Below, piece after piece: positions 4,055 to 4,141 of a stretch of 46,273 bases of DNA. The stretch comes from Escherichia phage PhiR29_1, in the sequence record PV340556.1; one strand, given 5' to 3'. The notes under the pieces are model-generated. The model searched no databases, was not told where the DNA came from, and saw only the letters and a list, made by a program, of their open reading frames with translations. Every line of letters starts with the position of its first letter. Position 1 is the stretch's first letter. Position numbers and translations under genes: made by a program.

Positions 4055-4141
4055 CAAAACAGAGAAGAACACCTGTGGTGGCCGCCGCCCGGATGGATTG
4101 GGTTATGAGCCCGTCGTCCGGTGATGCTCTTCTCTGTTTTG
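4055..4141. repeat. 14-bp perfect inverted repeat (CAAAACAGAGAAGA / TCTTCTCTGTTTTG) enclosing a 59-nt GC-rich spacer; predicted long stem-loop
   Basis: Arms at 4055-4068 and 4128-4141 are exact reverse complements; lies 50 nt upstream (in minus-strand sense) of the 4005 start codon. Confidence 0.6.

Follow-up and report, generated by a model that had tools for sequence, protein, structure and literature searches.

A conserved three-way-junction RNA carrying a copy of the initiator tRNA anticodon arm in the leaders of lambdoid prophages

What is a long inverted repeat doing immediately upstream of the first early gene of a lambdoid prophage? We asked this of Escherichia phage PhiR29_1 (sequence record PV340556.1). 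The whole stretch of DNA analysed, 46,273 nucleotides in length, is referred to here as the window. It is a lambdoid phage or prophage near-identical to Escherichia phage PhiR29_2, with window positions running 26 higher than those of the PhiR29_2 record. The repeat comprises a 14 bp arm, CAAAACAGAGAAGA, at positions 4055-4068 and its exact reverse complement at 4128-4141. A preliminary description of the sequence placed the resulting hairpin on the leftward transcript, upstream of the early-left genes. We show that the repeat forms the closing helix, P1, of a conserved RNA of ~100 nt with a three-way junction. The RNA is encoded on the minus strand, within the leftward early transcript. One of its arms contains a copy of the anticodon stem-loop of initiator tRNA.

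A conserved three-way junction on the minus strand

Both arms of the repeat are present as described, as are the 59 nt G+C-rich spacer and a start codon (position 4005) 49 nt away. The perfect repeat is slightly longer, at 15 bp (4054-4068/4128-4142), and reaches 18 bp at 94% identity (4054-4071/4125-4142). Perfect inverted repeats that reach 14 bp or more across a spacer no longer than 100 nt occur at three loci in the window. None of 100 first-order Markov simulations of the window produced one. The other two repeats are at 17368-17424 and 41599-41634; there are no more. As minus-strand RNA, the region folds into a 25 bp stem around two small hairpins (dG -46.5 kcal/mol). Shuffled sequences gave -27 +/- 3.4 kcal/mol, and none of 200 was as stable (z-score -5.8). 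The plus-strand fold is slightly weaker (z-score -4.0).

Comparison with related phages indicates that the fold is under selection. In a first alignment, of five phages, the hairpin was kept upstream of yfdP; its core was invariant, and compensatory changes were seen. Alignment A2 comprises 48 non-redundant homologues of what we call the class 1 element, and defines four helices: P1 (20 bp), P2a (5 bp), P2b and P3. Pairing was kept throughout this set, with 94.9% of cells paired. As a control, we slid the pairing partner by 1-3 columns, and pairing fell to 39-53%. Double-sided changes occur in 11 pairs (84 cells), and none of 500 shuffles attained the observed covariation score. They affect 6 of the 20 pairs of P1, where 94.6% of cells are paired, and 3 of the 5 pairs of P2a. 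Within P3, pairs 79/113 and 80/112 covary. P2b and the P2 loop are essentially fixed while P1, P2a and P3 covary. RNAalifold, unaided, returned the same helices, together with two pairs inside the P2 internal loop and an extension of P1 into an adjacent U tract. A covariance model, R1, matches positions 4044-4158 with 124 bits (E 2e-32).

The same alignment identifies the strand. It contains 80 G.U cells and 18 A.C cells. Read as plus-strand RNA, the 80 G.U cells become A.C and pairing drops from 94.9% to 90.9%. Of the 48 sequences, 42 retain a U.G pair at alignment columns 41/119. Hence, the RNA strand is minus. Model R1, itself built on the minus strand, scores 36 bits on the plus strand against 124 on the minus. 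In every homologue examined, the element is upstream of a gene on the same strand; the G.U pairs and this gene orientation together fix the strand as minus. Element lengths vary from 115 to 142 nt and the differences are not multiples of three. Hence, the region is non-coding. We are highly confident of both structure and strand. Covariation, G.U asymmetry and gene orientation thus bear out the hairpin of the preliminary description as a real, selected structure of the leftward transcript. Its suggestion that the repeat could also be the terminal stem of a plus-strand non-coding RNA fails on the pairing figures given above, and the plus strand offers no gene context.

Briefly, the whole class 1 leader element spans 4044-4158 on the minus strand, as delimited by alignment A2 and model R1. 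It consists of a terminator tail, P1, P2, P3 and a 3' flank, GGAGAAAC. The 5' arm of P1 (ACAAAACAGAGAAGAGCAUC, 4123-4142) holds the right-hand repeat and makes 20 pairs with the 3' arm (GGUGUUCUUCUCUGUUUUGU, 4054-4073), which holds the left-hand repeat. The 3' arm was recovered by repeat search, folding, alignment and RNAalifold. Directly 3' of P1, the minimum free energy fold and the RNAalifold extension pairs identify a GGAGA motif (4049-4053). The motif can pair with the U tract of an upstream terminator (4143-4147), lengthening P1 to 25 bp. It is also kept in two variants (L058 and L083) that have no U tract. The P2 arm (4089-4121) reads CCGGA-CGAC-GGG-CUCAUAA-CCC-AAUCCA-UCCGG. It comprises P2a (4117-4121 with 4089-4093), an internal loop (CGAC/AAUCCA), P2b (GGG/CCC) and a 7 nt loop, CUCAUAA, at 4103-4109. 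P3 (4075-4088; GCGG...CCAC in the window) is a variable third arm, 14 to ~41 nt long in homologues, with a YUCCUAA loop in many. Between the element and the Shine-Dalgarno sequence is a small hairpin, P4 (4024-4043; AUCGGCCU-UGCA-GGGUCGAU). Hairpins of this type, with a KGCA loop (UGCA or GGCA) on many different stems, are found in 61 of 68 distinct downstream sequences.

Two further structural assignments were rejected. We do not assign P3 as a T arm: a YUCCUAA loop, of 8 nt, shows no T-loop pattern, and the window P3 is different again. A pseudoknot between AAUCCA and UGGAG is conceivable yet sterically unlikely across a 20 bp P1. The window version of P1 is unusually perfect, and this is why the repeat stood out in the preliminary description; most class 1 members are mismatched mid-P1. 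The spacer, correctly described as 59 nt and G+C-rich, is not a loop. It holds the conserved anticodon-arm copy and the third arm.

The P2 arm and initiator tRNA

The 14 nt sequence CGGGCUCAUAACCC (4100-4113, minus strand) is identical at 14 of 14 positions to the anticodon stem-loop of E. coli tRNA-fMet. The identity includes the three G-C pairs and the CAU anticodon. We verified the tRNA-fMet sequence in 5426 genomes, where it is present at 100% identity in a median of 4 copies, annotated as tRNA-Met. The 30S P site and IF3 recognise initiator tRNA by the three G-C pairs and CAU.

Our first retrieval patterns included the P2 core, so invariance of the core is built into that set. An independent retrieval used the 3' arm of P1 only and returned 256 instances, of which ~245 are real elements. 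CAU is kept in ~97% of these elements, and the core is exact or differs at 1-3 positions. The GGG/CCC helix shows zero covariation and only singleton breaks. Variation in the loop falls mostly at positions 37-38 (AA, UC or UA) and 32 (C or U). Judged from these sequences, the P2 arm is under sequence-specific constraint, unlike P1, P2a and P3. We estimate that the arm has ~10 stacked layers, like the anticodon-plus-D limb of a tRNA. Real mimicry of tRNA-fMet, maintained by selection, is in our view a probable explanation. A rare variant was observed in IMG/VR, upstream of the CTGTTGTGTATGGAGAA anchor (L323): the P1 scaffold is kept and the loop AACUAAC replaces CUCAUAA.

The element matched no Rfam family and no tRNA model. 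Scanned with ARAGORN, the window yielded no tRNA, and on 4030-4165 there was no match to the Rfam tRNA model at E <=10. Rfam searches of the window, the region, a 136 nt element and a class 2 locus (see below), at gathering and permissive E-value thresholds, returned only miRNA-hairpin and hairpin-ribozyme noise. These searches gave no tRNA, C4, put-like or ribozyme family for the element. A literature search with the motif sequence, and for initiator tRNA mimics in prophages, found nothing relevant. We conclude that the element is a widespread, unannotated structured RNA that is new with respect to Rfam 15 and the literature open to searching.

Leader context, distribution and origin

In the window, the element is part of a long leader. 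A cI-like repressor is encoded at 5879-5205 on the minus strand. The early-left genes, yfdP (4005-3643), yfdQ, yfdR and onwards to int, follow on the same strand, according to the open reading frame (ORF) list and the annotation of identical records. The first of them, yfdP, has a Shine-Dalgarno sequence (GAGGAG, 4013-4018) and a start codon at 4003-4005; with the former included, it occupies 3643-4018. A probable PL promoter (TTGACA-16-CATAAT, with operator-like ATGTAC..GTACAT sites) lies at 5138-5165 on the minus strand; it was identified by a promoter scan (11/12 matches), by its sequence and by comparison with the PR region. PL, at 5165-5138, is the likely source of the leftward transcript. 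The stretch from PL to 4006 is untranslated on the minus strand and would form a strongly structured RNA (dG -187 kcal/mol, z-score -4.8). Hence, in the window phage yfdP is preceded by a leader of at least ~1.1 kb. From PL onwards, this transcript runs through a long structured leader that includes the STnc100-like RNA and then through an intrinsic terminator, which is directly followed by P1-P2-P3; P4, the Shine-Dalgarno sequence and yfdP come last.

The STnc100-like RNA (4140-4363, minus strand) is a full-length match to Rfam RF02076; its 42.4 bits (E 1e-7) fall slightly short of the gathering score, 47. The terminator (4142-4187, minus strand), evident as an inverted repeat and in the fold, has a 10-11 bp G+C-rich stem (4151-4160/4178-4187) followed by UCCUUUUUAC. 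In the STnc100 alignment of Rfam, the hairpin at 4187-4151 forms the terminator, and its U tract runs to ~4142. The U tract abuts the 5' arm of P1; the element begins where the terminator stops. In ~90% of homologues, the terminator and U tract directly adjoin the element. STnc100/PasD small RNAs (RF02076) are the immediate upstream neighbours of the element in both early-left and, as described below, late contexts. The element differs from them in lying beyond the terminator of the model, outside RF02076, and in having no terminator of its own. We rejected membership of the hairpin in STnc100: the neighbouring match, below the gathering score, stops where P1 starts. The position of the STnc100-like RNA, in an early-left leader, differs from the late region in which STnc100/PasD RNAs are usually found. 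We saw no resemblance between the early-left leader and the late region of the window itself.

Other features were noted in this leader. The first ~65 nt of the probable PL transcript (5062-5128, minus strand) are conserved in ST64B and phiNP despite different immunity. This PL-proximal stretch has short motifs in common with HK022 putL/putR (CGAACnGGC and GUCCAGGAUGA), and folding was indecisive. The 5062-5128 RNA is a candidate put-like antiterminator, judged from its sequence, and would account for transcription past the 4187-4142 terminator. Two direct repeats, CTTATTGTTGTTGGGGATATCCAG and CCTTGTTGTTGGGGAATAACCAG, occur at 4400-4470 (minus strand), just upstream of the STnc100-like RNA. 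An ORF of 171 aa (4475-4990, plus strand), coiled-coil-like and with only a weak Pfam match, is antisense within the leader, between PL and the STnc100-like RNA; it has its own terminator (5029-5048, plus strand). Elsewhere in the window, Rfam IS009 (RF02111) has a full-length match of 229.5 bits at 40146-40344 (plus strand).

The element is widespread. At 90% identity or more, the 115 nt element is present in 2488 of 5426 complete E. coli genomes, in up to 5 copies and with no RNA annotation. The window has no second copy of the kind that would parallel putL/putR. BLAST detected the region in SfV, SfII, SfIV, ST64B, mEp460, cdtI, Stx2c and Stx2a phages, LLS, phiNP and phiES15. Pattern scans of IMG/VR and GTDB returned several hundred loci, from Escherichia, Shigella, Salmonella, Citrobacter, Enterobacter, Kosakonia, Mixta, Raoultella, Leclercia, Phytobacter, Erwinia and other genera. 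In well over 100 distinct phages, and in hundreds of prophages, the element lies between the promoter and the first gene. The genes that follow class 1 elements are varied, and include YfdP-family, RdgC-like and YfdR genes.

A second class of element has the same core on a shorter scaffold, with a P1 of only 5-6 bp and a P3 loop of AUUCCUAA. Class 2 elements occur in the leaders of late operons, where 13 loci have the element upstream of holin/endolysin cassettes. In L056 (7139-8619), the element is flanked by a Q antiterminator gene (PF06323) and terminator on one side and a holin gene on the other. In L154 (3082-3600) and L160, a bona fide STnc100 RNA (84-86 bits) is found ~240 nt upstream of the element, with terminators between. 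Hence, a module of STnc100-like RNA, terminator, anticodon stem-loop element and first gene is common to early-left and late leaders. The late-leader order is Q antiterminator or STnc100, terminators, element and holin/endolysin genes. Late-operon leaders hold a second and a third class of tRNA-fMet-like core (L154, L160, L056 and positions 1-980 of L008).

E. coli K-12 carries remnants. The copy in the cryptic prophage e14 (L197 3597-3711; NC_000913.3 1201096-1201210) scores 95.8 bits with model R1 and is within the dubious ORF ymfH. It is decayed, with UUAAUAA as its loop and GACCC in place of AAUCC. From CPS-53, the copy has been lost up to the Shine-Dalgarno sequence. A 'ymfH' overexpression clone is a reported trigger of the retron-Sen2 toxin RcaT (bioRxiv 10.1101/2020.06.22.160242). 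This clone consists largely of the structured RNA described here; hence, the retron-Sen2 trigger might be RNA instead of protein.

Where did the element come from? Lambdoid late operons commonly have tRNA genes at the 5' end (PMC8022706). Those of phage L, Sf6 and Stx phages occupy the same slot as class 2 elements, after the late promoter and terminator and before the lysis genes, and have the same CAU anticodon arm. The element differs from them in having no D arm, T loop or CCA and, in class 1, in its 20 bp closing helix. A gammaproteobacterial metagenome-assembled genome (L190 3663-3722) encodes a truncated tRNA-fMet, not called by ARAGORN, with a deletion of 16 nt that lies between its anticodon stem and T loop. 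The deletion yields exactly the 18-mer of the element, GGGCTCATAACCCAATCC. Similarly, the class 2 core is identical at 22 of 23 positions to E. coli tRNA-fMet with the same deletion. Descent of the element from a phage tRNA-Met or tRNA-fMet gene is, on this sequence likeness, plausible. The later fixation of the arm argues for co-option rather than decay.

Possible functions and rival explanations

The element lies just past a terminator. Hence, we infer that it is present only on read-through, antiterminated transcripts, i.e. during lytic development. The first genes downstream, yfdP, rdgC-like genes, yfdR and, in class 2, holins, are unrelated. For this reason we propose a cis-acting module that is independent of the gene it precedes. 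Our favoured explanation, which we hold tentatively, is that this leader module sets the fate of the read-through mRNA, and it might do so in two ways. In one, P2 would mimic the anticodon arm of initiator tRNA and be read by whatever cell machinery reads that arm. The reader would most likely be the 30S P site or the IF3 checkpoint, and P2 would then govern initiation at the first cistron, which follows a long untranslated stretch. Such a mimic could license or throttle the first initiation event on antiterminated transcripts. Reading of P2 by the ribosome or IF3 is itself doubtful. In the other, the 20-25 bp P1 of class 1 would act as a handle of double-stranded RNA of the RNase III type. 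Cleavage would free the mRNA of the small RNA and terminator upstream, much as happens in the lambda N leader and in the processing of dicF. P1 has the length of an RNase III hairpin, about two turns, with 20 bp and a 5 bp extension in the window. Class 1 members keep the 20 bp helix, in most cases with a single mismatch at its centre. By analogy, RNase III may cleave P1, a possibility that we rate above recognition of P2 by the ribosome and still below probable. In its fullest form, the proposal is an undescribed class of RNA in lambdoid prophages of Enterobacterales: an initiator tRNA anticodon-arm mimic, placed past early-left and late terminators, that engages the 30S P site and IF3 or acts as a nuclease decoy. 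We put this forward as speculation.

Known systems resemble the element in part. In operators of the E. coli thrS type, as here, a hairpin in the 5' untranslated region copies the anticodon stem-loop of one tRNA, with an invariant anticodon. The element differs in copying the initiator tRNA, in being phage-borne and inside a three-way junction, and in its distance from the ribosome-binding site (49-130 nt or more). Between the P2 loop and the start codon lie ~90-220 nt, which include the P4 hairpin. The element is beside unrelated genes. Hence, autoregulation by a cognate synthetase is unlikely. The lambda N-leader hairpin, sib and the maturation of dicF (Qin dicB operon) resemble P1: each places long double-stranded RNA in an early-left leader, after an RNA signal and ahead of the first cistron. 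Like sib, the element is complete only on read-through transcripts. P1 differs from these RNase III sites in enclosing a conserved tRNA-like junction, and is short in the late-leader class. The put RNAs of HK022, an N-less lambdoid phage, are also cis-acting structured RNAs; they consist of two stem-loops and belong to its early leaders. HK022 put RNA acts via the zinc-binding domain of the RNA polymerase beta' subunit. The invariant unpaired nucleotides of the element suggest recognition by a host machine. The element differs in its enclosing helix and in following the first terminator, whereas put RNAs precede the terminators that they suppress. We compared the HK022 genome sequence, found no shared core and rejected identity with putL/putR. 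The C4/CI-type immunity antisense RNAs of P1, P7, P4 and N15 (RF01695) share a closing stem and two hairpins cut out of an early leader. This identity was also rejected, given no Rfam match and a loop with no enriched complementary target in the phage.

Other candidates were set aside. An antisense role for the loop is not indicated, as its complement, TTATGAG, is not enriched in the phage (7 observed against 4.9 expected). Homologues compared by eye showed no consistent pairing of the loop with the Shine-Dalgarno/AUG region or with upstream leader words. The element is not the SfV site of transcription-termination-mediated immunity, as the annotated SfV immunity region is orf37, in the right operon. 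The SfV orf37-orf38 region (L165 7643-8708) corresponds to the ymfL/ymfM area of the window (~6200-7100). Nor is the element one of the Pas small RNAs, all of which end in terminators and adjoin Q or holin genes (bioRxiv 10.64898/2026.05.13.724894).

The preliminary description proposed a tL-type intrinsic terminator of the leftward transcript or a processing site. A processing site is plausible for P1, with its 20-25 bp of double-stranded RNA. As for a terminator, the RNA does form a very stable hairpin with a U-rich 3' arm (UUCUUCUCUGUUUUG). However, the U-rich run is inside the stem, the base of which is A-U rich (ACAAAAC/GUUUUGU), and the stem is followed by GGAGAAACUAAUC instead of a U tract. 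Two conserved hairpins occupy the 53-59 nt insert where a terminator has a 3-8 nt loop. A consensus terminator scan made no call, and a canonical terminator is already present directly upstream. In the homologues examined, the element lies between the promoter or leader and the first gene, not at the end of a transcription unit. We thus reject a terminator as very improbable. Least probable of all is a plus-strand non-coding RNA, a DNA-level signal (cruciform or protein site) or a piece of coding sequence like ymfH. The repeat is symmetric in the DNA, and some records have ORFs annotated across the element (ymfH in K-12 and a frameshifted hypothetical protein). Against this, the G.U asymmetry favours minus-strand RNA, the conserved unpaired sequences are strand-specific, and the ORF list and promoter scan give no gene or promoter context on the plus strand. 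The indels, not being multiples of three, oppose coding, and PGAP flags the ORF as frameshifted.

P1 could be only a processing or stability hairpin of the lambda N-leader, sib or dicF type, with inner arms that are a mere cap and a tRNA likeness that is irrelevant. In favour of this reading, there are 20-25 bp of continuous double-stranded RNA beside a small RNA terminator and upstream of a first cistron, and RNase III sites occur in the lambda N leader and dicB operon. It leaves unexplained the near-invariant 30 nt of P2, paired and unpaired, while P1 covaries; moreover, class 2 keeps P2 with a P1 of only 5-6 bp. We consider it unlikely. Somewhat less likely again is a decayed phage tRNA-Met or tRNA-fMet gene, serving as a punctuation mark for RNase P or RNase E or hitch-hiking as a relic, with an anticodon arm that is not read. 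The class 2 slot at the 5' end of late operons, where tRNA genes are common (PMC8022706), the L190 deletion product and the 22/23 match of the class 2 core all favour it. So does the order of the arms, P1, anticodon-like arm and third arm, which is that of a D-armless tRNA. However, ARAGORN and the Rfam tRNA model were negative, P1 is 20 bp, there is no CCA and the window P3 is no T arm. A neutral relic would not hold the anticodon stem-loop fixed across lineages with many compensatory changes in the flanks, and the e14 copy illustrates what real decay looks like. Abundant early and late leader RNA may instead be an anti-defence decoy that titrates tRNA-fMet-specific anticodon nucleases (VapC/MvpT type), reviewed in PMC7180214, or other toxins that bind the anticodon stem-loop in lytic growth. 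The copy is exact, has the initiator-specific G-C pairs and would be made only from the two strongest lytic operons, past their terminators. The hosts, Shigella, Salmonella, E. coli and relatives, carry vapBC, and the VapC cut site adjoins anticodon-loop positions 37-38, where loop variation is concentrated. Conversely, one copy per mRNA may be too scarce, and we know of no temperate lambdoid phage that triggers VapC. We regard a decoy as improbable.

Several observations weigh against a selected mimic in a cis-acting leader module. Loop positions 37-38 change from AA to UC or UA in ~25% of instances, a departure from a strict tRNA loop. There are 18 instances with GG/CC only, and 2 with the other loop, AACUAAC. 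The variable distance from loop to start codon (~90-220 nt) gives no fixed geometry with the ribosome-binding site. P1 has a central mismatch in 34 of the 48 class 1 members and, since it is only 5-6 bp in class 2, RNase III cleavage is not the shared function. Descent from a degraded phage tRNA gene, rather than selected mimicry, could account for the tRNA identity. Finally, every functional step is an inference.

Almost half of complete E. coli genomes carry the element, often more than once, and it occurs in prophages of at least a dozen enterobacterial genera. It is unannotated, or misannotated as fragments of hypothetical ORFs such as ymfH. On a conservative reading, with a processing hairpin and a tRNA-derived cap, the element defines the architecture of the early-left 5' untranslated region in lambdoid phages that lack N (SfV, ST64B and LLS, for example; Stx2c phages are among them). 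It also explains a recurrent mosaic joint, and merits an Rfam family to stop ORFs being called across it. If the proposed module is real, a phage exploits the identity elements of initiator tRNA in cis on its own mRNAs. Functional mimicry would be a new coupling of antitermination to translation initiation, or a new means to blunt defences that target tRNA. It would also provide a compact natural RNA ligand for the P-site/IF3 checkpoint.

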